This document shows, in pieces, positions 1 to 56,260 of a stretch of DNA of 64,000 bases. Under the pieces are notes generated by a model. The model was not told the DNA's origin, made no database searches, and saw only the letters and a program-made list of their open reading frames with translations. The translations under genes were made by a program, and so were the position numbers. Origin of the DNA: Microthyrium microscopicum. Lineage: Eukaryota. Where the stretch lies: NCBI GenBank assembly GCA_010405405.1, contig MU004244.1, positions 685,895 through 749,894 on the forward strand. Reading direction: 5' to 3'. Positions within the stretch are counted from its first letter, which is position 1. Each line of letters starts with the position of its first letter.

Positions 1-1336
1 GCAAAAGTAAAGTATGCCGTTGTTCTACTATTTCGATGCTATAGTTCTACCCCTGATCAACCTTGTGATTGTGGCATTGGCCGAAGTCTATAAATGTTGA
101 AGTACCGTAGGCATGAAGCCCAAGGATCACTGCTAAATATATAGAACTGAGGCTGAGCGATAAAGACATCGTCCAATTACAAGTGTGTAAGCACTAGTTC
201 ATGTGAGTGTGCAGTAACCAGGTCCCCAGTCGCGGTCAGGTCCACCAATCGTTTGGTGTAGAGATCCCGGAGTGGCATACTTATATGCCTTAGACGTACA
301 ACACGCAGCTGAATAAGCCCTGGCATAATGAAAACATGGATAAGCAGACGTACTTACGGCTGCTATTAGTATTGAAGAATTGATGCAAGGGAAATTATAT
401 TGTCCTACCCCGGTTTCCCTGGCGAGGCGTCAGACTTTCATCGTGCATGAAGGATTCACTTCACCTCGTTCTCTCAACGACCTCGACACAGACAGAAGCC
501 TTGCTACCAATGTCGAGTATACGTGGCTGCATTTCAGCCCAGTAAGCGATACACTGCGTATCTCGCGATTCTCTCGCCTATCTGGATGGCTTGAATGAAA
601 GTATGCTTGGACAGGATCCCTGACTATCTCTCAACTCCTCAAGGTCGAAATCAAGCGAGCCGCTTTGGTGTAGCTTCTATTGACTAAAGTCGAATTTTGA
701 TGAAATACTTCTGTTTAATAGGAACTACTTATCCCATCTTTATCGATATTTCCGAATGTATTTCTGCATTCTTGAATGTTTCTAAAGCAACGCTCATGCG
801 ATGTTCCGGCAGTCATCACAGCAGCACAAGAAGCTATGCAGCGACACATGCAACAGATGAAGCAGGTGCAGAACAGGCAAATTAGAGCAATGATCCAGTA
901 ATCAGAGAACATTGGCATGATGAATATTGCAAAAGACATGCTAGCGAGTACACGGATGTCAGTCAATGCAATGCATGATGGCCAAAGGTCACAGCTAGCA
1001 GCACAAATGCCTCACGGATATGGCCATACGTATCATACCACCCCAGGAATTTGGTACTTCAATGGTTTGTGGGTAGACTGATATCAATATGTCTATGCTC
1101 TGGTGCTACCTGCAAAAGTCTTCCAAATTGTGCTTGATAAACAGATATATGGATTTGTATGAAACAGAGCAATTTGCCATTACGAAAGAGAACGTTAGCA
1201 AGCGTAATCATCTTTCCCAATTTGAATGTGTTTATGTTGCCCAGTCCCAACCTTGAGCTCGAGTACCTGCATCACAGTCTCGTCGGCAAGCTCCCTAAAC
1301 TCATGGCTTGCCCATCGATTACCTTCAGCCGTCAAT

Positions 1337-2035
1337 TTACAAGCCGAGCTGAATGTCTTCACTGGCAGGCACTTTGGTAAGCAGTGCTAGGAGTGAACTT
1401 CGATTGATATGTTTCCTATTGAACGCCTTATGTTTGCGTTTGACTTTATATTGAATAGGTGGTGCCGAGAAATTGATTGGCCAAATGTTCTTCATGAAGA
1501 ATGCTCCGGTAAGGTTGAGAGGATCAACTATTTCCCCCGACAGACTGCCATGTCTGGTCGCTAAGCTGTTGATTGACATTGTCATGGCCATTTCAGCTTC
1601 ATCGGCTTCACTCAAGAGCGATGTCCATGTTATATTATCATTCTTGATCCGTATTGCCAAAGTAGACTTGCAGTGAAGTGCTTGTTGTCTAACCTTATTG
1701 AGAGACTCAATGTGCGCTTCCAGCTGCTCTATTCTTTCACTCAAGGCCGATTCCTCCTTAAGTAGCTGGGCCTCTTTAGATTCCAACGATTTCATGGTTC
1801 GATTAAGCTTCAGGCGACGAATCTCGAGACTAATCATTCTTCGTTGAAGAACATGCTCCTGACATTGGATGGCTTCATATTTCCGAAGCCATGCGCGCCG
1901 GCCGTCATCAAGAGAGGTCTCTCGCCGCTGGAGAAATGCAAATAACCGAAATGCAAGGTCGGCGTCACTGAATACAGGAGGGGTGGACAGAGTGAGCGTT
2001 TGAAGGTCGTTGGGAGCCATGGGGAGCCGTGCCAA
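1337..2035 (-). CDS. Hypothetical coiled-coil protein (start uncertain; may be a gene relic)
   Basis: 232-codon open frame with a long charged heptad-like stretch (LEIRRLKLNRTMKSLESKEAQLLKEESALSERIEQLEAHIESL); no recognised domain. Confidence 0.35.
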   Translation of the reverse strand: MARLPMAPNDLQTLTLSTPPVFSDADLAFRLFAFLQRRETSLDDGRRAWLRKYEAIQCQEHVLQRRMISLEIRRLKLNRTMKSLESKEAQLLKEESALSERIEQLEAHIESLNKVRQQALHCKSTLAIRIKNDNITWTSLLSEADEAEMAMTMSINSLATRHGSLSGEIVDPLNLTGAFFMKNIWPINFSAPPIQYKVKRKHKAFNRKHINRSSLLALLTKVPASEDIQLGL

Positions 2036-21286: not shown

Positions 21287-24238
21287 TTAACCAGCAATCT
21301 TAGCAGCAGCTCTGAACACCGCTTCAGTCCCCTTTAGCCCAACCTTGTTCTCGATCCAGTTTTTTGCCTTGTCAACAATCAACTCCCACGTGTCCTTCTC
21401 AGCGGCCCACTTGGTTTCCAAAACTCGTATGGCGATAGCAGTTGCCAGAACATTCTTGTCGAGGTTTGTCACTTTCTTGGCGGAAGTCATGTCTGTACCG
21501 GTGGCGTGGCATAGCTGCTCATTCCAGATCCAGAAGCCCTCAAACGTTTGAAGAGCGATGAGGGATTGCAGCGATACACCAGTCTGCTTGCTTGAAGGAG
21601 TGATGTTCTTCTTACTCTCTGTTGAATCATGCACTTCCGAATCCTCGTCTTCGTCATCTTCAATAGGCGCAGATGCAGCCTCAGACATGTCAAGCGAGTA
21701 GTCTAGAGGCCGATCAGACCCAGAGTTGGTATAAGCCCCTCTGCTTGCTACAAACAAAGAATTGGGTGGTGCTGGTGGGCAAGGAGCAGCTCTACTGTGC
21801 ATGGTGGTGCCTCCAAATGTTGATTGACTTGATATCGTTCCTGGGGCTCTTACCGTGTTTTGAAGCTGCATATTCACATCACTCGGTTCCCAGTCTGTAG
21901 AGGAGCCGAATGGAGATGCTCTGGCGAGACCGGCGGCATAAGACTCAATTGAGGGAGACCCAATTTTAGGAGACTCCTTTCGAGGCCTCTGTTTACGACA
22001 TGCCATATGAATATGAACTGGCATAAGAGCTCCAGGTACTGATCTGGCCATGCACGGAATTGCTTTTCTGAAGCGGAGCGATGGGCCGGTGTTTTCCTCT
22101 TTCTCAAGACTCAGCTGGCTCTCATCGAGATCAAGGAATTCGTAGTCTTCTTCATTGAAAGACTGGCCGTTCTCTGGTTCTGAAATCTTCTTTTCGGTTG
22201 CAACAAAAGAGCAATACTTGTTCGCAATCTGGAACTGTACTCCGAGTCGAACGCATTCCTGCTTTACGATCTCTCCGAACATACTTGGATATTGTTCTTT
22301 GATCGTCGTTCCAGGTGTGGCACCACAAGTCTTTGCAGTTTGTAGCCATCCTCGTCCTTCCTCAAGCTCTTGAATAGCCTTCTTGGCGGCAAGCTGATGA
22401 ATGGTTTCTCCTGGCTCAGATAGACTAGTGACTGGGATCTCAAGTTCTAGAGGTCCCTGTGGGCAATAACCTCGGAGAACAACGGCTTTGAGGGTGCGCT
22501 GCTGGTGATCAGGTGCGATCAAGATATATGCAGTGGTTCTGTTGAAGGGAAATAGAGGTGGAAGTTGACTCGGTGCCTGGAGTATCATCGGAATATCGTA
22601 TTTTGGGATCTCGGAGGTTGACGATGAATCCATCGGTTCATCAGGATTTGAGTTTAAATCGAACAGAGAGATAATGGGCTTTGGGTCATGCTTGGTGTCT
22701 GACAGCGGAGCTTTTGTTTCTAGGCTGTTGTCAACGGGGTCAAGCATCTCAAAGTCTTCATCACTGCTGGAATCGTATTTCAGCTCGAGCGTAAAATCCC
22801 TGATCTGTGGGAAAAGACTTGCTTTCAGCATGCGGACGACTTTAGCGTCAAGTTTCTCATTCTCTCGAACTGCCTGGGAGAAACCATTCCCAGCGCGCGC
22901 AATGCCTTCAATAAGCGAGTGTGAAACGCTATTACCAACTCCAAGTGTGAACACTCTCACAGGCTCTCGGTTTATAGCGATGCGTTTGTTGAGCATATCG
23001 AAGAGAGCCTGTTGATTCCATACTTCTCCGTCTGTGACCAGGAAAACCTCAAGGTCTCGGTCAGCGAAACGGTTATTGATTGTGGCCTCAAGCGGGCAGA
23101 ATATCTCTGTGCCGCCGTAATTGGCGCTGAAACGCTTGACGTGTTTAAAGGCTTGTTCCGTAGTTTGCTGATTATAAGGTTGACTCTTCGGCCAGAGAAA
23201 GTCATGACTTGATCCAAATGAGCAGATGTTAAAGACAACACCAACTGGGAGCGATTTCAAGAATGTTTGAAGTGCATTGATCAAGGCAGCAATTCTACCT
23301 CCCGTCATAGATCCGCTGCGATCACAAACAAAGACAACTTCCGGTCTTGCCTGCTTCAGGTTGAATTTAGGCACTAGAGTTGTCATCAGCGCCCGGCTAC
23401 CTAGAATTGTAGGATGAGTCTCGAGGACTGCAGCTGGCGTTCCAAATTCTTTGGAAATGATTTGCAAAACAAAGTCCTGATCAAGCTCTGCTGATCCAAG
23501 TCCTAGCGAGGCCGATGCTTTGCTCATGGAAGGTTGCGCATCGGGAGCCGTTGAAAGTGCGCCCATAGAAACAGCGATAGGATGGGTTGGTGATCTGATT
23601 TCACGAATGAAGAATCCATCTTCCAGTTCCGTATCAACGGTGACCTCGAAACGACCTGGAGTGGTTCCAACCGCATCAGATTTGATCAACTCTCCAGGGT
23701 ATGCCCCGTATCGAGGGGAGATGATGGTTGGAATGGTGAAGCGAACACCGTCGACTTCGGCATCGTGCTTGAGTTCACCTAGATACGTGATGTCGACAAC
23801 AACCGTTGAGTCAGGTGCAATGTTGCCGATTGTGGTAGTGAAGACATCAGATGCATCAGGCAGCTGTTCAAGCAAGCCAGCCACTTCGCCCCGTTCAGCG
23901 GCAGCCTTGAACTGTTCCTTGGCTCCCTCCTTGTCCTTGACTTCTCCGGTGATGACTCGATCTCCGACCGAACACTTGAAGGCGACAACGCTAACTCCGT
24001 CAAATAGTGGGAAAGTGTAGCGCAGTTTTCTGATTCCATGAGTTTTGGATGGCACCACAAATTTCTGGGTCAATGTTGTTCTTGATGTGGTTGATAGGAT
24101 TGTTGTGTGAGTCTTGACATCAACCTGTTGAAGATAGCGTCGAAGTGGTGAGGACCAAGAGTTTGGTGGAGGCAGGCTATAGTAGCAGCCACAAATATGT
24201 TCAGTTTTAGACATTTTTGATGTATGGAAGTCTGGCAT
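21287..24238 (-). CDS. VIT + von Willebrand factor A domain protein (VWA5A-like)
   Basis: VIT region (YTFPLFDGVSV, GLLEQLPDASDVFTTTIGNI); MIDAS motif FVCDRSGSM, YGGTEI, LVTDGEV; C-terminal LIALQTFEGFW and WELIVDKAKNW. Alternative start at 24214. Confidence 0.9.
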   Translation of the reverse strand: MPDFHTSKMSKTEHICGCYYSLPPPNSWSSPLRRYLQQVDVKTHTTILSTTSRTTLTQKFVVPSKTHGIRKLRYTFPLFDGVSVVAFKCSVGDRVITGEVKDKEGAKEQFKAAAERGEVAGLLEQLPDASDVFTTTIGNIAPDSTVVVDITYLGELKHDAEVDGVRFTIPTIISPRYGAYPGELIKSDAVGTTPGRFEVTVDTELEDGFFIREIRSPTHPIAVSMGALSTAPDAQPSMSKASASLGLGSAELDQDFVLQIISKEFGTPAAVLETHPTILGSRALMTTLVPKFNLKQARPEVVFVCDRSGSMTGGRIAALINALQTFLKSLPVGVVFNICSFGSSHDFLWPKSQPYNQQTTEQAFKHVKRFSANYGGTEIFCPLEATINNRFADRDLEVFLVTDGEVWNQQALFDMLNKRIAINREPVRVFTLGVGNSVSHSLIEGIARAGNGFSQAVRENEKLDAKVVRMLKASLFPQIRDFTLELKYDSSSDEDFEMLDPVDNSLETKAPLSDTKHDPKPIISLFDLNSNPDEPMDSSSTSEIPKYDIPMILQAPSQLPPLFPFNRTTAYILIAPDHQQRTLKAVVLRGYCPQGPLELEIPVTSLSEPGETIHQLAAKKAIQELEEGRGWLQTAKTCGATPGTTIKEQYPSMFGEIVKQECVRLGVQFQIANKYCSFVATEKKISEPENGQSFNEEDYEFLDLDESQLSLEKEENTGPSLRFRKAIPCMARSVPGALMPVHIHMACRKQRPRKESPKIGSPSIESYAAGLARASPFGSSTDWEPSDVNMQLQNTVRAPGTISSQSTFGGTTMHSRAAPCPPAPPNSLFVASRGAYTNSGSDRPLDYSLDMSEAASAPIEDDEDEDSEVHDSTESKKNITPSSKQTGVSLQSLIALQTFEGFWIWNEQLCHATGTDMTSAKKVTNLDKNVLATAIAIRVLETKWAAEKDTWELIVDKAKNWIENKVGLKGTEAVFRAAAKIAG

Positions 24239-24927
24239 GGATACTCTACTAAAGAACGAGGATGATTCTCAGATTTATACCACATGCATGGACAACTTGG
24301 CATGGACGATATGATGGATTGTTGCCTATTTCATGGTTAGACCAGTTACCTGGCACGTTTTGGCCCAACACTACTAGGTAGCATCTGGATATGTTTGCTA
24401 TTTGTCTGCGGTGTCATTGTCTCTGATTAGGTAGTCTCGTCACTAAGCCGAAAATGCGAAGCCGGTGAGAATTGTTCCCTTGGCTTGCTATCAATGTTTG
24501 TAATGGCGGCAAAGGCTCCAATCGGTACAACTCAGCCACAATGACATACAGAAATTTTAAAGAAAGGTATTGGTAGTGGCAACTTAGCCGTCTCCTTCGC
24601 CCAATTGCTAGCTCCATGATCGTTACCAGTATTTAGCGTGTTGCAGGTTCACCTCCAAAGATGGGGCAGTGTTTTTTATGAGTCGTTAGAAGTGATGGTG
24701 ATAGAGCTTTGGTGGTGTTGATTTTGATTCCAGCCTGAACCTGGCAGCCTGCACGCGTCGCGCCACTGCCCAAATTGGTGGCGCCCAGCCCCTTTTCTTG
24801 GAAGGTTCAATGTTTCCAAGGTTGTTTGGTGACTCGGGCTTTCGTGGCCCCTTTTTCTTGCTCCATGGCATTTTCTTTGTGGACAATATTTTCATCTCAG
24901 CTTTATCACAATATCCCAGGCACTACT

Positions 24928-26496
24928 ATGGACTCAGCCGCTGTCTACAACAATTCAAACCGAGTTCTACCAATATCTTCTACAGTCAATTCGGCTGCTC
25001 ACTATTTTGTCTGCAGAAACAACTTCAACTAAAATATTCTCAGAAAACACAATCTAGATTAGGTAGTGACTGCCCTATCTACGAAGCACTCTCTTATACA
25101 TAGGGACCTGAAGATTCCACCTTTCTCTTCAAAATCAATAAACAAGATCTAGCAGTACGACACAATCTACTACTGGCTCTTCAGCGATTGAGACTGCCCC
25201 ATGAGGAGCGAACTATCTGGATTGATGCTGTCTGTATTAATCAGAATTGCGTCCCAGAGCGCAACTACATTGTGGTATTCATGCGCGACATTTACACCTC
25301 TGCCAAAGGGGGTGTCGTAGTATGGTTTGGTGAAGACGAAGCGGACACTCATCTTGTTCATTCATTTCTGGAGCGAGTGATCGAAGGTTGTCTGAACAAG
25401 GAGAAAGAAGAAAAAGGAATTCTTCGACATTTCAAGAAGCACTCGGCAGTGTATCATAGAGTTCCTCTAATCACAGGTGTTGGGTACAGGGCCCTTTATA
25501 ATCTCCCTATTACGCCTTGGAGTTGCAGAATTTGAATCGTTCAGGAAATTGTCATGGCACCACGCAATCCAGAGATACAAATTCTCAGAGGAAGTCATAC
25601 CTTCAGCATGGAAAAACCGGCGCTTGCTATGTAGTATGTTTACAAGTACAGTCTTGAGCATTTTTTAGCCTTTAAATATCCTGCAGGACTCAGCATTCTT
25701 TGGGGCGAGCGTATATCAAAGGCTCATACACCCAGTCTACTGATCGTGGTTGAGAGGAACTGGCTGACATTTTCCACAGACCCGAGAGACAAGATATGGG
25801 CACTTCTCGGACTCGCCGATGACATGTCAGTACACCGTGACTGTGATCCGAGCTATACTGTGGAAGAGACGTTCACAGATTTTGCAAGATCATGTATCTT
25901 ATTTCGACGTGATCTTGCGGTGCTAGTAGCGTTGTCATCAACATCAGCGAAGCGTCTTATCACTCTTCCAAGCTGGGTTCCGGACTGGACGACGTGGAAT
26001 CCACGTACCTTTTGTCTCGTATCTGCTGAGACTGACAACGAAGGCCGAGGTTTTGAACACTTCACAGCCGCAGGGGAAAACTCTAACATTCTGCCCGATA
26101 GCCAACCAAAGCATCTAAAAAAAGTACTTTGAGTTCCATACTTTTCTGCACGCGCTTCGCGATTCAAACCCCTGAATCTTTGGAGCCCCTGACTATGGCT
26201 CGGGATACATACGCGGTGTTTATAAGCATCGAGTCATTGGAGCATTGAGCGTCGCCGTGAAAATATTATTCGTTCTGACGGAGAAGAATGGGTTCTTGGG
26301 TCTATTCTGCGAATATGCTCGAGAAGGTGATTCGATTGTGCTTCTTGAGGGAGCTCGGGTGCCGTTTTTCATCAGGAAGAGCGACAAGATGAGACAGGAA
26401 ACGTCAGCATGGGAAATTGTAGATGATGGGTACCTTCATGGGGCAATGGCGGGCCAAATATGGAAGTACGAGTGTGAGTATATTAATTTCGTATGA
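24928..26496 (+). pseudogene. Decayed HET-domain (heterokaryon incompatibility, HET-6-like) gene
   Basis: HET motifs in the right order across several frames: SIRLLTIL, YEALSYT*G (TAG at 25101-25103 replacing Trp), NLLLALQRLR, IWIDAVCINQ, MRDIY, VVVWFGE, TDPRDKIWALLGL, LPSWVPDW, GDSIVLLEGARVPFFIRK, GYLHGAM. Confidence 0.88.
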
Positions 26497-26650
26497 TGTT
26501 GTCTAGACAAGCCCGTCTCAAGCTATATCATATCGAGCTGTATCTCAAGTCAAAACAAGGTAAGGGTTTTGACGCAAATCCTCATTGTATAACCTATCTA
26601 ACAGATTGTTATGGAGAAAAGGTACAAGTCAGCCTTCGAAGGACTTTGGC

Positions 26651-28486: not shown

Positions 28487-29912
28487 GACTGAAGTGAAGA
28501 TAGTTTGGCTGTCAACTTCTTTGTGAGGAGAAAAGTGAAGCCCAAATACTCCACGAGCCACGATGGTAGATAATAACGTCAGGAAGATTTGTCCATAGGC
28601 CTGCATTGATCATCTTCATATTTCCCATGATATGCCATTAGATGCAGATTTTGAGATGAAATCAATATCGATGCTGTGACGGACCACAGTTCAATTCCAG
28701 GTTCTATATCACTACCATTACCCTGGAGAGCATAGTACATATTTTGTGTTTCGGAAGTCCGTAAATCGAGTTCGTGCCAGGTACATGGTAGAAGTTTAAA
28801 TCACAATTGGAATGAGATTTCCAGTGCCCTGGTTCTGATTTCAACCGATGCGCACGATCAATGACACGCTCCAAGCTCGCGGCTGATGAGGCTACACTTC
28901 ACATGTTATACCTAGGTGCCCCAAGTTTCCACCAAACAGGCAAGCGCCTCTCTGCTTATTGAATTGTTGTCCTTTTTCGAAATATGCGCTCGCGGGTCGT
29001 GCGACTTTTCATGGTATAGGAGGAACTGCTCCTTGTAATACATGTGTAGTTCCCGAGCAGCTAGGTCTTGAAATTAATGAAACACTAGATACTTGTTCAT
29101 AATGCTTGGCTAGCCATTGCATCACGGCAAGGAAATGAGAAATAGTGCCATGAAGCAGGATACGCCACGTTATACAAGAAAATTGGTTCCTGGACAGTTC
29201 AATCTCAACATCCTGTTATATAGATCGCACTAACTATAGAGGTTAAAATAGACAATAGAATGGCATCTGAGGAGTTTGATGCTAGCAATTTAGTGATAGG
29301 CATGACATGAAAACTTGAGCTGGTTCGTCTGCTCAATCATCCACTGTACAAGCTTTACATTAGGAGCGGCGAAGTCAAACCAGTATTAATAAGAAATGCT
29401 CACTATGGGATTCGATAACCAACATTTTGATATTGTATAATGGCAAACCGACCGTGGATGAATCACCTACCTGCTTTCATGCACATTCCTCAGTTACAGT
29501 ACCTACCTGGTAGATAGGTCATCATTTATAATTCGGACTTAACAAGAATTGGCGGAGAATTTCGCATAGCTGTTGAATCCTCTCCTTCCTAGCTCCTATC
29601 CTATCATAGGGCTGGTCTACTCGGATGAGTAATGATTAATCACCTGGGAGAAGTTGCCAAGCGGTTTTTGCGCTTCGATAATTGCCAGTTTAGGAATCTA
29701 TGATTATCTTTGAATAGTAAGGTATTCTGTACATTGAAGTGTTCACGTCATTAACGATCCTACCTGTTAAGAGAAGAAATGAGGATGTATATAAATATGA
29801 AGACCTCCGCTAAGATATTAATTCATTTCATTGTAAAACAAACAGTTTCATCTACTCGATTGTTATATCGACAGCCTGACTAAGAGGTATCTATCAACTC
29901 ATATACAACAGA

Positions 29913-30979: not shown

Positions 30980-31419
30980 TGGGAGCCAGGTAGAATAGCC
31001 CGTAAACTACAAAGATGTTATATTTCTTGTGCATCACTGGAGTAATGGTATTTCATTTTATTCACCATCATTATTCGTGTGAAGGCTCAGTACTACTTCC
31101 AAGAAAATCTACAAGGACAGAAACGGACTACGATATAAGATGCTGACCACAATGGAAACGCAATGCTGCCTCTCGGAATTCGCATAGAATTGGCTATCCA
31201 ACGTAGAGTTGTTCACAACACCTCTTCAAAGGTCTGTTATGTATTTACGCATTTGCAACCTCATCATACAGCTTTGCAATGAACGGCAAAAAATCAACAT
31301 TGTGTTTGAAGATGTTGAACAACATCAAGATATGCTGACTCAGCACAAATTGTATAAGTAGTAGACAGCCCCCAGATCTTCAGATCGAGGACTTAGTGAA
31401 AAATCCATCTCATATTCTA

Positions 31420-32252
31420 CTACCAAACCTTTGTCCCTTTTGGTGATCTTCTAATACATTGCTTTTCCGTCTTCGAGTTTTTGCGCTTCTCTCTCTCGGT
31501 AACGATCAAGGCTATCAATGCAGCAGTACCAAGTGCAGCAGTCACTTGAATGGCCCCATTGACTATAGCCAGTCCATCACCACCCGCTCCAGCACTTTGA
31601 AGAATTGCGAACATGCTGTTTGATGAAGTAACTGGAACCTGAGCCGCAGCAGCCACGGAACCTGTAGTAGTGTCTGGTCAGCAAGCATTCCAAGACCAAA
31701 ACCAATTGTCCAACAAGGAACCAGCCGTATTAGAGAGCAGACATACCTGCTGCAATACCCAAAGGAGTGAATCCTGCCAGCGAGAGAAGGGGAGTCGAAA
31801 CTAGGCCTGGGGCAATCATAATGATCAATCCGGCAGCTCCAATGGCAACTACATCGGGATTTTCCATAATCCAGTCCAGAACCTAGGGAGTTGACACATC
31901 AGCACGTGGCGAGTCAGAATTCTTAGAGGGATTTTACCTCATCGGCGACTTTTGCGAGTTCTTCTGCTGCTTTGGCTGTGGTTTCAACAATGCGAGGGCC
32001 TTGCTCATCAGCAAGCGCTTTTCCAGCTGTCACGATGTCTGTCACCAATTTGGCTATCTGAGCACCAATGTCCTCCACGAAACCCTGGACGCCCGCAGTG
32101 GCATCCGAAGCGCCGTTTGCGATGTTGGAGCCTTGCTCGTCTGCGATAATCTGTGCCCCTTGAGCGGCCCCTGAAGTGCCTTTAGCGATATTCTCGCCTT
32201 GTTCTTCAGCAAAGGACTGCACATTGGCAGCGACATCATTGACCCATTCCAT
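31420..32252 (-). CDS. IFI6/IFI27-like membrane protein with N-terminal 22-aa repeats (paralog 1), 3 exons
   Basis: Spliced reading ...VADE|VLDWIMENPDVVAIGAAGLIIMIAPGLVSTPLLSLAGFTPLGIAAG|SVAAAAQVPVTSSNSMFAILQSAGAGGDGLAIVNG; two canonical introns (GTAAAA...CTAG; GTATGT...GCTGAC...ACAG). Confidence 0.8.
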
Positions 32253-32798
32253 GACGAGTGAAAATGGCAACCAAGTGAACCTAATCAAGAAGACAGATAA
32301 TGATGAGGCTTGAAAATTGGCAGAGGCCGGGTTTATCTAGTGTGTGATGTAATTTGCTACTAGCCACTGACAACAAACATGGCAACAACAGCCTGACGCA
32401 ATTGCTGCCTGTGGTGGGACCTGCTGACTATTTCTTCCTACAATCGCGGCTTCCCATCACAGGACATCATTGTCGGTAGGTAATTGAGTGCTCCCAACTC
32501 CGTCGCCTCGCTCCTATAACTGGCGATCGCTGACCGCCTTGTGCTGCTGCGCATGGAATTTTAGTTTCTGGAGCTTCTTACGTAGGTAGTAATAAAATTT
32601 AGATAGAAACAAAGCATACTTGGCATACAGGACTAGTAGGCCGAGAGAATTATGACTAAATAGGTTTGGGTCAAGGCAAATAGCATTGATTCTAAGTTTG
32701 ATACCTGGTTGGCTAAAACCCACCATGTGTCTGTAGAATCATCGTTGCTCACCTTTCGAACTTCATCAAGTCGAATCCGCATTCGATGTGACTTTCTC

Positions 32799-33245
32799 TC
32801 AGTGGAATAGGGTCCGCAATAGCGGAAATCTTGCCACCAAAAACTGAAGCAAGACACGGAGCAAAAGTCGAATAGGACCAACTGCGCCAAGTCTCTGTAG
32901 AATCGAGAATGGACTTGAACTAACTACCGCAGGGCCCTGGATCTTGGCAGCTAGTGAGCCTGTCGCATAAAGATTGTCAGTCAATTTGTAAAACAATCCT
33001 AGCATTTGAGCAACGATTGAGGTGAACGGAGTGACTATACCAGCGATGACACCCAGCGGACCGAAGCCTGATGTATTCAGAAGCAGTTTGAAGAAGAGCG
33101 GTAAGATGGAGGCGAAGGAGACGAGGACGATTGGGCGTGATATGGTCTTCAGGAGCTTCGCAACATGTTGGCCTTCGCAAGTTTGAGGAACGTGAGATGC
33201 CACAAAGCCTTGAATGGCTGAGGGAATTCCTGGAATTGCGTTCAT
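32799..33245 (-). CDS. IFI6/IFI27-like membrane protein (paralog 2), 2 exons
   Basis: LLLNTSGFGPLGVIAG|SLAAKIQGPAVVSSSPFSILQRLGAVG; in-frame intron GTATAG...ACTGAC...ACAG at the same G|S position as paralog 1. Confidence 0.7.
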   Translation of the reverse strand: MNAIPGIPSAIQGFVASHVPQTCEGQHVAKLLKTISRPIVLVSFASILPLFFKLLLNTSGFGPLGVIAGIVTPFTSIVAQMLGLFYKLTDNLYATGSLAAKIQGPAVVSSSPFSILQRLGAVGPIRLLLRVLLQFLVARFPLLRTLFH

Positions 33246-33833
33246 GGCTGGTGAGAGGTCAGTCGAGATACAATGCACCAGCGGAATGAGCTGAGAGAGG
33301 TTGTCGAAGTTGTTGCTGTGATCAGGATTTCGAGTGTCGCGTAGTTGAATTTTGAGGAAAGTTTACGTCAAGGCCGCAGCGCAAAATGATCGTGGGCCAG
33401 TCTAAAAGCTAAGCCTAAATACAATTAGCCTGATATATCTAAGGCAGGTGCATACAAGTTCCTCCCGGTAATCCATATATTTCTGAGGCAAGTGCACATG
33501 TGTAGTGGGCATACTCTAGGTCGTGACTGCTACTTCCATCAAATTCGACCAACATCCTCCACCTGAGCCAAAAGGCAAATTTCAAGAGACGCTCCTAGAT
33601 TAGATGAATCAATCCAGGTACCTTTTTGATGTTTCAAACCATTCTGGTGTCAACGTGACGGCCGCTTAACCACCAACACTAATGTTATGTGGGCCACAAG
33701 GAGAATGGTGAAGCATTTATTTCTTGTTAGGAATACACTATCACTTCCGTGGTAAATGATGACTTCGGGGACTGGATTCATCGAGTCATAGCTACCAACC
33801 CTTGATCGTAATTTGTAAGTGTTTGTCAATCCA

Positions 33834-34101
33834 TTACTTTCCAAAAAACCAAAGTGCACCACCAACCAGGGAGCCAGCGACAGTAACTGGACTCAAGAGA
33901 AGGGCCGGAAGCGCAGCCAGACCCGCACCTCCTGCTCCTGCGCTTTGCAAGATAGCCGCCAGGGAGCCTAGGTTGAGTTCAGTCAATGTAAAAAGCGACA
34001 GAGCGGTCATTGCTAAAACATTTCGCAGTGATAGACTAAAACGCACCTCTCAGAATTCCCTCCGCACCGAAACCGAATAAGGACAGAATTGCAGCAACCA
34101 T
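33834..34101 (-). CDS. Minimal IFI6/IFI27-like microprotein of about 62 aa (paralog 3), 2 exons
   Basis: Spliced reading MVAAILSLFGFGAEGILRG|SLAAILQSAGAGGAGLAALPALLLSPVTVAGSLVGGALWFFGK; intron GTGCGT...CTAG at the shared G|S position; TATA-like TATTTAA on the minus strand about 160 nt upstream. Confidence 0.75.
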
Positions 34102-37100
34102 GATTGTTAATGGAACAAGTGATCAATTTCCAAGGTCTGAGGTTTTTGTTGTTCAACAGATATGTCTAGAATGTCGGGGACCGGGGTCGGACTGGGAGCA
34201 GAATCTGATAATGGTTCAAGTTTGAGAAGCGATCTCAGTTGTGACCAGAACAAAGGCTGCTTAAATATACGCTGCACTGAACGTTATGACATAACTAATT
34301 TGCTTGCAGTTGCTCAGATGAGAATTGATATGAATTGTGTCACCGCGGTGGATAGAGTTATGATAGATCACAATTGTGTCGATGCAATGATATCATCATG
34401 ATTTCCTGCTGGCCTTTCGTTCTAAACTTCCATCTAATAATTCGCTTGCTGACGGGTAGAAACTACCAAGTAAGTTGATCATAAAAAGCACAAGGGGTAG
34501 ACTGACAACTTATCCGAGTTCACTGGAGCTGGAGCTGGGAGTGCAGATCAAATTTGTTCTGATTTTTGAGACAACATAATAATGCCTTTATGTGTGAGAT
34601 ATATCAAAATCGAGCAGCGAATTTGATTGAAGTAAGAATGTGAGTTGTGAGTTCGAACGGTTCTGAGCTACAACTAGCACGCAGCAAACATATGTGGATC
34701 AGTTCTTAAGCACTATAGTGATTGTCTATGTCGATAGTAGTGCGGTGATTGCTAGATAGAACATTGTGAAGTCGTCAGAGTGAAATATGTTCTCTATATG
34801 TTCACAGCGAAGGATTTCTTGCGAATTGATGCTTTCTTTCTTCTTCATTTCGTACCTTCTTTAATGGCTAAATCCAAGCTCCAATCGACTCATCAGCGTG
34901 GAAGATGAGTTCAACTTGCCTGATAAAATCCGCAATCATGATCTAAAACACTTAAAAAACATCTTGATTGCCTTTGAAATTGACTCGTCAAATGAAAGTC
35001 CCACAACTTTGAGATAGCTCGACCATTTGCCTGGTTGGTGTACAAGATAGGAATCATGCATCTGATATGTTGGAAGTTAGGGGTAAAGCACAACGAATTG
35101 GAGGTTTATGTACAGCATTGCTATTGGCTGGCTTAAAGCATATGTACTGTAGTATTCTGACGAAGCTAATAAAATTTACGAAATCTTCCAAAAAGCCACA
35201 GAAATACCACGCAACAAGTGTTCCATACGGTCGCCAATGTTTTAATTCTGTGGACTTCTGCCTTGATCTGCACAGAGCAGTCAAAAACTCGCTTAATTCA
35301 AGCCTAAAAGTATCGCTACTGTGCCTTCCATGCATTATCAATGATTCAGCTCTAAGTTTGACAGGATGGCGTAAAACATGTTTTAGGCAAGCCGCAAGCG
35401 CAACTTTGTTAGTTAGGGAAAGATCGACGAAGAAATGGATTTTGATACGAAGTCTATCTTCCATAACTGCAAACGCCTGTCAAATACTTGAGAGGCAAAT
35501 CGCTTTTACTTCTTCACTTTGAAAATGAAAGTTGTGTTACCTTTGTGCCACATTATAGAAATATCTGTGTTGCACTGCGCAGAATCTGTGGGGACCCGAG
35601 GAAGCGTCGGCGGTGGACCAAGTTCAGCAAAGCCACTTTCTGTTGCCTCTAAAACTCAAAGCGCCATTCAAACTTCAGCTCGTTCTTCCTTGGCTGCTGC
35701 AAAGATCTTGGACGATCAAGCCTTGAGAAGTGTTGAAGAAGCAAGGCGATGCGCTGATCAAATGTCTTTTGCCCAATGCCCTTGCGTCATGCGTATTCGT
35801 TAAAGTCCCTCTAATTTTGAATTTTGACGCTGAAAGTGGTGGCGCACATGCAGCAATCGATAATGCGAACAAGAATTTGAGGTCGTGGTTGACAGTTGCA
35901 ACTTGAAATCGAAGACGATATTTGTACATTTGATGCCATACCGGCAGCAAGCATGAGATAAAAACACAAGTATCACAAATTTCCAAGCCTTGATCAATGG
36001 ATCTGCTTACTAGTTTCAATCTTTGCCAATGAGGATCTCAATTTCTGGAGGGCCATGAAGCAAATTCGGCGAGTTACAACATGATCTAACATTGCTGCTG
36101 GAGCCTTAACACTCGGTTCCTCACGGAAAGCTTCATAGTATTACAACAAAGCGCATCGTAGAGAGGACAATCACGACAGTAGCAGATTTTTGAAATTAAA
36201 GCGCTCCGTTGCACATTATTAGCCTTTTGCAGATCTGTCGAGTTACATTACCAGGCTTTTAGAGTATAACACAACGATATAGAGTACCTCGAAAACCTAA
36301 CAATCCAACGGAGCGAAGAACCTGGACTTGCTCAATGGCAGCCGTATTGTTATGCAAGAACGCAACGTCATACCTTCAAATACTGCGGTTTGGGGCTGCC
36401 AGACAATAATGACAGGATGGGGTTTGGAATGGAACCTTGCGAAGGTATCACTAAAAGCACGTCAAAACACTTTTGACTTTGAAGATCGTGTATCATCAAA
36501 CATGACTGTTGTAAGGTGAAGAAATATATCATTTGCCGCCGTGCATCCGCCATAAATACAAATGCGATTTCGTACATTGCCGATGTTAGCACGCGGTTTG
36601 AATTCAATGGCAACCTTGGAATGTCACCTGTCAATGCAATCATTCGAGTCTACAGACTCCACCTTAAATCCTTGATATCGTACCACGTTGCTCCAAGAAA
36701 TGTTTTCCCTATTATGAATGTGTCTATATATAACAGCACTATAAACGCTACCGGGACTGTGATTTATTGCATGCATAGTTGAAGCATTGCGATAAACTCA
36801 AAATGAGAAGCAATGTGGACCATTATCAATCTCGAGGACTTCAGTCAGTCGTCATGCTCGCGGCCTCGAAACATCGGGTGCATCACGGTTTCGCGCTGAA
36901 CTGATGCATAACACGCACCTTGCAGAAAACTTCGAGATCGTTCTGGAAGCGAAGAGGCAAATTTGTCTAAAGGCGATAATTCATGTTGTACAGCATTAAG
37001 ACTCTATCAAATTCTCAATGTCACAACCTCAAGGTTGAAGTGTGGTAGCGAATGACGATAGGCGAAACATTAAATTTCCGTGGACCGGGAGCTGCCGTGC

Positions 37101-52135: not shown

Positions 52136-55100
52136 ATGCAGAAGATCAAAGGCATCTTGTAAGCATACCCCAACAACCTCAGCAGGCACTACTAACAACT
52201 TCACAGAAATCCCGGCGGCAATACCACTGATGAGCTAATGTATGATATGGGCGATTCCTCCAAGAAATCCACTGGAGACTCAACAACAGCAACCTCAACC
52301 TCCACTCCATCTACCGGCCATGCAGCCTCTGGCATATCTGGCCCAGAGCACGAACAACAACACAATATTGCACCTGCCACCCAAGGCATCTCACAAAATG
52401 ACCCAAGACACGAGGTCGGCCGTGATGCCGCTCTTGGAGCTGGTGCTGGAGCCGTAGGTGCTTCTGTAACAGGCAACCAACCTCATAGCTCCACTTCAGC
52501 TCAACAATACCCAATACAGAGCGGCCCAACTGCTGGCTCAGGTCTACAAGATACCACACAGCATGGAACGATCGCATCCACAGGCACCGGAGCACCAACC
52601 AACACCACTGCCACAGGCCAACAGCATCACTACGGCAGAGATGCAGCAGTTGGAGCAGGAGCTGTGGGCGCTGCTGAAGCAGCTCATCATTCTCACAACA
52701 AGCATGAGGACGAAGAGGTTGCTGGTGAAGATGGCGAGAAGAAACCCAGTCTTCTGAAGCGCATCTTCCATCACGGTGATAAGGATGAATCAAAGCACGA
52801 GTCCAAGCACGACCACAAAGAGGAGTCTAAGCATCACCACACCACAACTGCCGCCGCAGCAGGAGAATCAGCCCACCACGAAGGCAACAGATTGCATAAG
52901 GATAATCCTAATGAGCCCAGCGTCATTCCATACAAACACCAAGACGTAGCCGGAACAGATACGTCCGCTCCGGGCCTGACTCAGAAATCCGAAGATCATC
53001 ACTACGGACGTGATGCAGCTGTTGGTGCTGGCGCAGTTGGCGCCGGTGCTGCTGCTCACCATCACCATGAGAAGAAGAATGCTGATGATAATACGCATGC
53101 TCACACACAACCAGCGACCACTGTGGGAGGTCACGGTGCCGTTTCTCAGAGTGCCGTTGCAGGACAGAATCAGCCAACATCTGCTACCGATCAGCACCAT
53201 TACGGCCGTGATGCTGCTGTTGGCACCGGCGTCCTCGGAGCTGGTGCAGCCGCCCACCATGCGCACGAGACAAGAGGAGCAGACCATCATACAGGCGCTG
53301 CCGAGACTGGCACCATTCCTTACAAGCACCAGGATGTTGCAGCGGCAAATACATCTTCTACTCCCGGCCAAACTCAGGCTAGCTCAGATCATCACTATGG
53401 ACGTGATGCAGCCGTTGGTGCCGGTGCGTTGGGAGCTGGTGCTGCCGCACACCATCACCATGAGAACAAAGATGTAGGTGCTGGAGAGCAGGAGCACAAC
53501 AAGACTACATTAGGAAGTATCTATAAACATGGTATCCAGGGTCCACCAGAGCAGACCAATATGGTTACTGGACATCACGAAGGTGCTTCTGCAGGATCGT
53601 CTGGACTTGGCCACAATCAAGCAACCGGCACAGATCATCACTATGGACGTGATGCTGCTGTCGGTGCTGGTGCTCTGGGCGGTGCTGGTGCGCTTGCTCA
53701 TCATGAGCACGAGAAGAAGGCCGGGGACGATGGGTTGGTTCCCCGGACTGCGCCAGGATATGGAAGTGCCCCTGGCCAAAGTCAGTCTAGCACAGATCAT
53801 CACTATGGACGTGATGCTGCTCTCGGCGCAGGTGCGTTAGGAGGTGCTGGTGCTCTTGCTCATCATGAGCACGATAAGAAGGCCGCAGACGATGGATTGG
53901 TTCCGCGTACTGCGCCAGGATATGGTAGCTCTGCTCCTCAGACTGCCGGAGCTAGCCTTGGCTCAGGTACACACAACACTGGCTCAGAATTTGCCTCTAC
54001 ATCGCATACTGCTGGTGACGGCATTGACTCTCGTCCTTCCACTGGACACCACAGCGTCGGTATTGCCAACAAGTTAGACCCACATGTCAAGCCAGATGGC
54101 GATAATGGCACTAGAATCACCGACACCATGGGCCAGGATCAGCATCACTATGGACGCGATGCCGCTATTGGCGCCGGTGCACTCGGAGGCGCTGGGGCTC
54201 TAGCTCATCACGAGCATGGAAAACATGATCAGACACATGCCTCTTCCCAAGCTCCAACCGCTCTTGGAGGCCAGACGCATCAATATCCTGGCCAAAGAGA
54301 GTTTGGCGCAGACCCAAATATCTCCGATCCAGGTCAAACCAACCCTGCGCCACTACCCACTGCCGGAGGACAGGAACATCACTATGGTCGCGATGCCGCA
54401 CTTGGTGCTGGAGCTCTAGGTGGAGCTGGTGCTTTGGCGAGCCATGAGCACAATAAATCTGACAACAACAAGAATGTTCTTCCACAAGATACTGTTCTGG
54501 CCCAGAACGCTGGTTTGGCGGCTCACCAACCACATCAGGAGCGAAGCGTGTCAAACACCGCTGTAAAAAGCGTCGCGATGAACGATGAGCCCAAACATGA
54601 TGCCAAGCATGAAGGCGGGAAACACTTTGAAGGAGGTCTTCTTGGAATCGGAAAAAGTCATAAAGACAAATCCGAGCCCACTTCAGCCAAGCACGATCAT
54701 AGCTCAACGAGTCCTGCGCAGGTGCCAGAGAGCGATAATGAGAAGCACCATCTCGGTCGCGATGCGGCTCTTGGTGCAGGTGCTGTCGGCGCGGGAACAG
54801 CGGCTCACAAGCACCATGAGAAGACCGCTGATGAGCACGAAAGCGCAGCAGACAAAGAGAAGAAACCCGGTCTTCTTGAGAAAATCTTCCATCGTGGTGA
54901 GGGCAAAGAAATCGAAAGCCATCAACCCCCTCTAGCAACTACAAATGATTCTAAAGATCATTACCAACCAGGTGCAGCCGTGACTGGTTCCGATAAAGAC
55001 CATCACTACGGTCGTGATGCGGCTCTCGGCGCAGGTGCAGTTGGCGCGGGAGCAGCGGCTCACAAGCACCACGAGAAGGCTGCAGATGAGAATGAGAGCC

Positions 55101-56260
55101 CAGCGGACAAGGAAAAGAAACCTAGCTTGATAGAGAAGATTTTCCATCGTGGCGAAGGCAAAGAGGTAGAACAACATCAGCCACCGCTATCTTCTACTAA
55201 TGATACCAAAGAGCATTATCAACCAGGTGCTACTACGGCTGATAGTGAGCACCATTACGGTCGTGATGCGGCTTTAGGTGCTGGTGCCGCAGGTCTTGGA
55301 GGCGCAGCAATCCACGAGCATAGCAAAGCCACCGACAACAAGACCGACAAGCGCGATGTTCACTTTGCGGGTGCGCAGAACACTCCAACCACAACTCAGC
55401 AACAGAAGACCCCTTTCACCAGTACTCCATCTGGTCACCCTGTGAACAATCTTGGCTCTACTACTGGTACAGCGCCATCGCAGACATTGCCAGATCGATC
55501 GGTCCAGTCTCAGGCTACCCAGCAACACAAGGACAGCCATAACAGTGCCCTCACTGCTGCCCTTGCTGGTGCTGGTGTCGGAGCCGTTGGAGCCGGGGCG
55601 CTTGCTCACGACCAATCTGCTCACGGAGGACGAGCGACCACAGAGGACAGCGCTGCGGCTGCCCATCCTACTGGCGCTACTGTCACCAACCCATCCGAGG
55701 AACTACCCCATGTTCCAGATGACAATGGCAAATTCCTCAACCAGAAATACTTGGAAGACGAGACGACTGCACACGGCCATCAAGTTTCAGGACTCGGAGC
55801 CGGCACAGCAGGAGCTGTTGTCGGTGGTGCTTCGCAAGCCCACAAGGACTCACTCGTATCAGAAGAAGACCCTGCCACCAAGACCAAGGGCCCACACAAG
55901 AGCAACATTCTCAATGTCCTTGACCCACGCGTAAAGCCAGACAAGATCAGCGTCGACGAAGCAGCCGGCGTAGAGCAGAAACACCTACCATCTGATGGCG
56001 CAACTACTGGTACCCACAGCGGACCTCAGGACTATTCTGCCGGCCCACTCCGTCTACCAGAGGGCGACAAACTCACTCCCGTCGGTGAGGGTCACAGCGG
56101 TGCAGGAAAGCCAATCATGACTACTACCAACGCCACTTCCTCTTCTGCTGCCACGGGTGCCAGTCAAGAGGCGGGTCAGGGACATGGCACGAATCCATAC
56201 ACGTCTACGCCATTAGACCCACGCGTTTCTATGCCAGGAACGTACCCAGATGCTAAGTAA
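52136..56260 (+). CDS. Large His/Gly/Ala-rich disordered repeat protein with dehydrin-like motifs, 2 exons
   Basis: Micro-exon MQKIKGIL, intron GTAAGC...CTAAC...ACAG (about 52160-52206), then a frame of about 1350 codons with 12 GRDAAxGxG repeats and NKLDPHV/NVLDPRV/PLDPRV motifs. Confidence 0.88.

Follow-up and report, generated by a model that had tools for sequence, protein, structure and literature searches.

The question raised by the 64,000-nt stretch of Microthyrium microscopicum DNA treated here (GCA_010405405.1, contig MU004244.1, positions 685,895 to 749,894 of the forward strand; hereafter, the window) is whether three small genes between positions 31420 and 34101, likened in a preliminary description to the interferon-induced IFI6/IFI27 proteins of animals, belong to that family, and, if so, how they came to lie together and what they might do. 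The window lies on contig C15 of the genome assembly used (G000; 37.1 Mb, filamentous ascomycete). Judged from their sequences, the genes (designated A, B, and C) form an old tandem trio of a fungal branch of the ISG12 (IFI6/IFI27, Ifi-6-16) family.

The minus strand carries all three genes; position 34101 is the start of the ATG of A, and 31420 is the end of the stop codon of C. GT..AG splicing yields stop-free frames of 62 (A), 121 (B), and 230 (C) residues. Both motifs of the ca. 80-aa core (GF..G..SxAA and a motif of the LQSxGA type) are present in each product, and each gene is interrupted by a phase-1 intron in the Gly codon at the G/S junction of the first motif (hereafter, the G/S intron). 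The features of the models are as follows.

34047-34101, minus strand: gene A exon 1, with the ATG at 34101 and no N-terminal arm (gene model; inside a spliced RNA contig)
33968-34046, minus strand: the 79-nt intron of gene A, in phase 1 within the Gly codon of G/S (skipped exactly by an RNA contig; CT..AC on the plus strand)
33834-33967, minus strand: gene A exon 2; the 62-aa product is hydrophobic and lacks 14 central core residues (model, profile)
33041-33245, minus strand: gene B exon 1, short unique arm and first hydrophobic segment (gene model)
32960-33040, minus strand: gene B intron, 81 nt, phase 1, in frame and free of stops, with a weak donor (GTATAG); no splicing seen (model, RNA)
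32799-32959, minus strand: exon 2 of gene B, carrying the second motif and, after it, a divergent tail rich in basic residues and leucine (gene model, profile)
31938-32252, minus strand: gene C exon 1, predicted acidic amphipathic arm of 22-aa repeats, 105 aa (model, periodicity)
31883-31937, minus strand: gene C intron 1, 55 nt, phase 0, at a site shared with the unlinked paralog L003; no splicing seen
31747-31882, minus strand: gene C exon 2, first hydrophobic segment and GFxxxG motif (gene model)
31662-31746, minus strand: the 85-nt intron 2 of gene C, in phase 1 within the Gly codon of G/S, with canonical donor and branch site; no splicing seen
31420-31661, minus strand: gene C exon 3, ILQSAGA motif, second hydrophobic segment, and basic tail; the last 11 residues and the stop are derived from a long terminal repeat (LTR)

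The three same-strand genes, the shared intron, and the differing N-termini (a repeat arm in C, a short unique arm in B, and none in A) had all been proposed from the letters alone, and all were borne out by the models. That account did not mention the second, phase-0 intron of C, the 14-residue gap in A, or the LTR origin of the end of C. The public gene call P0002 is identical, letter for letter, to the spliced model of C. Because the intron of B is in frame and contains no stop, the public call for that gene (P0001, 148 aa) translates through it. The first donors of B and C are weaker than that of C intron 2. Pairwise BLASTP comparisons of the three proteins gave E-values of 5e-6 to 4e-11, and no further copy of the family was found within the 64-kb window.

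Membership in Pfam family PF06140 (Ifi-6-16; gathering cut-off, 29.1 bits) was assessed with C, with B read through its intron, and with single exons. Several results weigh against it: C scored 18.1 bits (E = 0.0025) and read-through B 14.3 bits; one of two unlinked paralogs in the genome, P0003, also misses the cut-off (22.1 bits); and the AlphaFold model of C, although all-helical, is of low confidence (pTM 0.35). The single exons gave weak matches when scanned alone, none of them passing, and a Foldseek search with the model of C returned no match at E ≤ 0.001. Rows for PspA/Vipp1 in that search were dismissed as long-helix noise. Used as a homolog query, read-through B retrieved only itself among 131 candidates.

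Profile comparisons gave a different picture. A protein search with the last exons returned 59 proteins, four of them from the same genome; 49 of the 55 others carry a precomputed PF06140 assignment, and all of the named ones are fungal. A core profile was built from 32 domains taken from 28 of those 55 homologs, all from other fungi (they had been found with exons of A-C themselves, a mild circularity). Against it, the spliced proteins scored 31.3 (A), 35.7 (B), and 77.9 (C) bits, the best shuffled sequences scored 10.5, 11.1, and 4.3 bits, respectively, and 0 of 200 shuffles reached a real score; the reversed sequences likewise scored below the real ones. Read-through B scored 20.0 bits. Of the 98 profile positions, C covers 2-93, B 21-71, and A 25-47 and 62-80; the tail of B beyond the second motif is not family-like. 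In the PDB, a profile of C and 36 relatives matched human IFI27L1 (2LOQ) and nothing else (E = 1.1e-7), whereas C searched alone did not find 2LOQ. At 39.5 bits, the second unlinked paralog, P0040, clears the Pfam cut-off of 29.1. A phmmer search with C retrieved 403 clusters at E ≤ 0.001, and its nearest neighbors in the Atlas were Ascomycota Ifi-6-16 clusters (scores of 0.87-0.89; a lead only). Taken by profile homology, and not by the Pfam threshold, A, B, and C are almost certainly divergent members of the Ifi-6-16/ISG12 family. The likeness first noted from the motifs is thereby supported. The family is widespread in fungi and already annotated in databases. Searches outside fungi with one pattern, and thus weak as negatives, found no relatives in viral contigs (0 of 48 pattern matches) or in prokaryote genomes (0 of 600).

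How the copies came to lie together was examined through their introns and divergence. The genome holds two unlinked paralogs, both on contig C6 (L003/P0003 and L001/P0040); further searches added none. The G/S intron is present in both of them, and under a strict test a phase-1 intron occupies the same codon in 8 of 10 metagenome loci; the two that fail, L012 and L013, represent the same gene and have the donor, with no AG at the expected acceptor. The intron is therefore ancestral in these fungi, and the idea that sharing it proves local duplication was rejected. Over 33 motif-anchored core codons, the proportion of synonymous differences (pS) among A, B, and C is 0.63-0.65, near saturation, while that of nonsynonymous differences (pN) is 0.24-0.38, a figure biased downward by the choice of motif blocks. 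No pair among the three aligns as DNA; C and L003 do (79% over 78 nt), and L003 shares the first intron of C and part of its arm. The closest relative of C is an unlinked paralog, closer than A or B. In a tree of 91 of 200 rows and 98 columns, a clade of A, B, and C was neither shown nor rejected (approximately unbiased test, p-AU 0.65). The copies are old, and the earlier characterization of them as "locally expanded" and "fast-diverging" was not substantiated.

These data also bear on the possibility that the array is a conserved cassette rather than a local expansion, in which an armless copy followed by arm-bearing copies would act together, for example as effector and damper. Tandem or multi-copy arrangements of the family do recur in other fungi. 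At least two domain stretches occur in 13 of 188 homolog models (in ca. three, a single domain is split by a read-through intron), and in five of the 13 an armless domain precedes an arm-bearing one (P0004, P0006, P0065, P0139, and P0140, possibly merged genes); two Venturia proteins of the family have consecutive locus tags. Gene A does not resemble the armless domains in particular: its scores against them are 54-86, compared to 93 for the median domain, and its orthology with the armless copies elsewhere was accordingly not supported. The tree neither supports nor opposes a node joining A with them. The spacer between SxAA and ILQ is 19 residues in B, C, and P0003, as it is in 8 of 112 homolog domains, and 21 residues in 98 of the 112 (83 of the 195 domains did not fit the pattern); this common 2-residue shortening suggests an origin within the lineage. 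The spacer of A is only five residues, a loss of 14 relative to B and C with no counterpart in the 188 homologs checked. We consider the cassette improbable and favor the reading of an old trio.

The arm of C has a 22-aa period (z = 7.3; 0 of 1000 shuffles reach it). Its hydrophobic moment, taken over the whole arm, peaks at 98 degrees per residue (0.37 vs. 0.26 for the best of 1000 shuffles), and its net charge is -13; an acidic amphipathic helix is predicted. Repeats of 11 or 22 residues with a rotation of about 98 degrees mark the lipid-surface helices of apolipoproteins and perilipins, and the arm of C probably lies along a lipid surface in the same way. A significant period was found in 27 of 83 homolog arms of 60-260 aa; 22 was the commonest (eight arms), and 11 and 33 occurred once each. 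Hydropathy analysis located hydrophobic stretches at residues ca. 109-145 and 181-205 of C (1.6-2.0) and ca. 33-60 and 93-120 of B (1.7-1.8), the second of B not being family-like; A is hydrophobic along its full length. Each product would be a small membrane protein inside the cell, inserted by way of a hairpin of Gly/Ala-rich helices, with the acidic arm of C (98 degrees per residue) resting on the lipid and with A and B as reduced variants.

Such a design would also suit lipid-droplet or membrane housekeeping or stress proteins with no immune role, in which a hairpin anchors the protein, the arm coats lipid, and the copies drift in accessory DNA. The geometry and charge of the arm follow an oleosin/perilipin-like logic; Phasin and Apolipoprotein matches to the arms were found, weak and all far under the cut-off; and the core is conserved in 403 clusters. 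Variable arms, tandem copies, and multi-copy models, on the other hand, fit genes in conflict better, and animal members are antiviral or apoptotic in the available text of 10.1101/693333 and PMC13705193. A purely lipid-related role is, in our estimation, somewhat unlikely.

The end of gene C has been altered by a transposon. The element and the RNA contigs over B and C are:

31303-31456, plus strand: solo LTR, 154 bp, TG...TA, Ty1/Copia; target-site duplication at 31298-31302 and 31457-31461; TATA-like word at 31353
31428-31690 and 31692-33447 (31428-33447 overall), strand undefined: unspliced RNA contigs over C, the B-C spacer, and B (run X1)

The element is a Ty1/Copia solo LTR with no internal domain; solo LTRs arise by LTR-LTR recombination (PMC7175516, in the portion available). 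A 5-bp target-site duplication surrounds it (by chance, 78 of 63,836 positions match at that spacing). It was inserted just ahead of what would have been the stop codon of C and adds 11 residues and a stop. There are 13 other matches in the genome, and the matched copies on contigs C3, C19, C25, and C26 are 100% identical; older LTR pairs, 6.6-6.8 kb apart, occur on contigs C15, C14, and C1. Older copies of the family, 72-90% identical, were also seen on contigs C15, C14, C1, and C2. Contig C25 (L031, G000:C25:1-6705) has the same LTR at both ends (100% identity), an intact 1869-aa Copia ORF (open reading frame) with rve before RVT_2, and a purine tract before the 3' LTR. Because the ORF and the tract run in the same sense as the plus strand of the window, the solo LTR is directed toward C and B, antisense to both. 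Contigs C25 and C26 both appear to be whole Copia elements. The sequence following the 5' LTR matched neither the primer-binding-site nor the hairpin words quoted in the accessible part of PMC5445492. The Copia family is young and heavily transcribed.

RNA over the locus came from one run (X1) of one study, which was taken as RNA because of its eight spliced joints. X1 skips six introns of the neighboring SDR gene and the 79-nt intron of A exactly; it also skips a 44-nt minus-strand intron near 34463-34506, where low-depth spliced RNA lies upstream of gene A. Gene A is hence transcribed and spliced, as had been anticipated of all three genes; among the matches listed in X1, no splice joint of B or C was present. 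The unspliced contigs cross the B intron, C intron 1, 84 of the 85 nt of C intron 2, and the spacer; they begin inside the LTR and end short of A. The plus strand across this span has no intron candidate and one ATG-initiated ORF, of 46 aa. Loose contig ends fall at 31302/31303 and 31456, the edges of the LTR, and no listed piece of X1 bridges an LTR edge by 31 letters. The one-base gap between the contigs at 31691, in C intron 2, is such as a single-base variant would leave. A depth spike at 31309-31509 was considered as a small RNA and rejected, as Rfam gave only one sub-threshold match, which lies elsewhere, and the stretch is the LTR; the spike is the element's own RNA.

A spliced A and unspliced RNA over B and C are as LTR-driven antisense transcription would predict (the strand being undefined), and we lean slightly toward antisense RNA that starts in the LTR and ends before A. 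Weighing against this, the same picture would result if introns were retained or if transcripts of the convergent SDR gene ran on into the array; the contigs, moreover, are strandless, come from a single run in which 8 of the 43 pieces were listed, and omit rare spliced forms. Contaminating DNA is an unlikely source of the unspliced contig, given bins of zero depth at 29500-29700 and 33520-33720. In the mechanism proposed, transcription from the young LTR probably yields antisense RNA across C and B that dampens the two genes; A lies beyond and is spliced. B and C may be muted by the LTR remnant in this strain. Both the LTR and the unspliced RNA add to the locus at the level of the strain.

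The same observations invite the explanation that the array is decaying, with A, B, and C becoming pseudogenes while the unlinked paralogs do the work. The LTR in the last exon of C, the altered tail of B, the lack of spliced B or C joints among the X1 matches listed, and the unparalleled 14-aa deletion in A are all in keeping with decay. Three frames have nevertheless stayed free of stops at a pS near saturation, with pN lower (even allowing for its downward bias), and A is transcribed and spliced. Decay of the whole array is improbable, and the interpretation of A, B, and C as an old trio, two of whose members may be damped here, is retained.

The surroundings of family members were compared for hints of function. 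Each of the two unlinked paralogs has a HET or PigL_N (HeLo-like; formerly Helo_like_N) domain less than 0.7 kb away. L003 is head-to-head with a HET gene, the HET domain lying 642 bp from the ATG of L003; the HET gene and L003, the closest paralog of C, constitute a candidate co-regulated pair. At this locus (L003 1-739, minus strand, and 1252-1879, plus strand; G000:C6:1.855-1.857 Mb) the start codons of the pair are ca. 0.5 kb apart, and the public call P0003 begins 76 codons upstream of the Met used in this analysis. L001 is followed in tandem, 566 bp on, by a PigL_N domain (26.9 bits, just below the cut-off); the locus (L001/L019, G000:C6:1.5096-1.5144 Mb) comprises a short-tailed member and then a long PigL_N-domain gene. 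A DJ-1 gene and, by eye, proteasome-like and ubiquitin-conjugating-like genes lie nearby, so the L001/PigL_N pair seems to be inserted in core DNA. With at least 153 HET, 19 NACHT, and 11 PigL_N matches in the genome, a uniform null of ca. 170 loci (estimated by merging split matches) gives a chance per locus of 1.4% for a distance of up to 1 kb and 6.2% for one of up to 6.5 kb; the placement of each unlinked paralog thus has a chance of ca. 1.4%.

Among the metagenome loci, two independent ones have a defense-type neighbor, four show none among the ORFs scanned, and three (L009, L014, and L015; < 1.6 kb) are too short. L010 lies 1.0 kb from a weak NPHP3_N (NACHT-type) match (E = 3e-4), and L012 lies 1.06 kb from a dynamin (presumably Mx-like, by its motif), with WD40 repeats and a weak PigL_N match further away. 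At L012 (3337-16161), from another fungus, the family member seems to have lost its splice acceptor; it sits between a divergent dynamin plus WD40-repeat gene and an antisense Copia fragment ca. 0.4 kb downstream, which echoes the arrangement at gene C. Adjacency of the family to HET and NLR-type genes is suggestive of a link to defense, and it fits genes in conflict better than it does a lipid-related role, which is favored in turn by the metabolic neighbors of the array itself (SDR, FAD oxidase, and P450).

A defense or cell-death role for the trio would thus be plausible by analogy, from the design of the arm, and from the neighborhood. As in animal IFI6/IFI27, the likeliest function would be an inducible one in stress or defense: the products would stiffen or destabilize membranes of the endoplasmic reticulum (ER) or mitochondria, thereby blocking viral replication compartments or tuning HET/NLR-type cell death. 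This is the weakest step of the argument, and several points tell against it. The HET domain nearest the array is 5,948 bp away (ca. 6% under the same null), with three genes between (FAD oxidase, a weak DUF3112 match, and SDR). No such neighbor was present at L008, L011, or L017 among the long ORFs scanned (30 in all, picked by eye), nor among the scanned ORFs of L016, which has no ORF of 150 aa; these four loci span 3.7-8.9 kb. The neighborhood categories were picked post hoc, the domain counts are minimum figures, and the signal is confounded by the clustering of HET genes in accessory DNA. HET and NLR-type neighbors therefore lend guilt-by-association support only. We know of no interferon system in fungi, so the animal context cannot transfer directly. 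We put the role forward tentatively, as a possibility. The broader notion is unlikely: that fungal ISG12 proteins are an unrecognized arm of innate immunity shared with animals, comprising membrane effectors with swappable 22-mer lipid-binding arms beside HET, HeLo-like/NACHT, and dynamin genes, and that an active Copia element has here switched off two of the effectors through solo-LTR antisense RNA.

Other features of the window surround the array. The 36 short ORFs flanking it gave one weak Pfam match (DUF3112). In the HET-domain gene (25080-26500, plus strand), a TAG falls in frame within the domain match and the reading frame breaks several times; the gene is adjoined by a 993-aa VIT-VWA gene (21287-24268, minus strand). 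Some 4 kb leading up to the P450 gene hold no recognizable gene; an RNA contig at 34833-35500 covers ORFs with no Pfam match. At 52196-56260 (plus strand) a 1354-aa His/Gly-rich protein with a repeated HHYGRDAA-type motif is encoded.

Should the defense role prove correct, fungi and animals would have IFI6/IFI27 among their common effectors, of an origin earlier than interferon, and molds would provide a genetically simple model for these proteins, whose action on membranes is still unclear in humans. The ancestral intron, the amphipathic arm, and the neighborhood signal make the idea testable, e.g. with AN5765 of Aspergillus nidulans. As it stands, the locus is another instance of a widespread, annotated family, with a single-run hint of transposon antisense; what is new is the amphipathic geometry of the C arm, the paralogs near HET and PigL_N domains, and the solo LTR with unspliced RNA. 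A literature search (subscription journals and supplements outside it; transcriptome tables may list genes) found no functional work on fungal members, in agreement with the earlier remark that they are uncharacterized; the only fungal paper found with the Pfam name has it, in the part available, in a table row (PMC10051545).

Among known systems, the closest are the animal ISG12/FAM14 proteins (IFI6, IFI27, and IFI27L1; 2LOQ), which resemble the trio in the GFxxxG...SxAA and LQSxGA core, in the two hydrophobic segments that hydropathy suggests for C and B, and in tandem copies. According to the accessible text of the sources, human IFI6 has two transmembrane segments and resides in the ER or mitochondria (PMC13705193); IFI6 stabilizes the ER against flavivirus invaginations, IFI27 destabilizes mitochondria, and zebrafish have eight tandem isg12 genes (10.1101/693333). 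The trio differs in that C carries a 105-aa repeat arm, predicted to be amphipathic, and falls beneath the Pfam cut-off, A is without 14 core residues, and B has a different tail; fungi, moreover, are not known to have an interferon pathway. Other fungal Ifi-6-16 proteins (P0019, A. nidulans AN5765; P0031 and P0023, Venturia; P0004 and P0006, Fusarium) share the core and the phase-1 G/S intron (present in 8 of 10 metagenome loci); their arms vary and often have a 22-aa period, and multi-copy arrangements occur. Unlike most of them, B and C have a spacer of 19 residues rather than the usual 21 (98 of 112), the deletion in A is unique among those checked, and C holds a solo LTR. That LTR shares its short length, 5-bp duplication, and integrase-before-reverse-transcriptase ORF with the Ty1/Copia solo LTRs of filamentous ascomycetes, as described in the available portions of PMC5445492 and PMC7175516, and differs from those described there in lying within a coding exon and facing it in the antisense direction.

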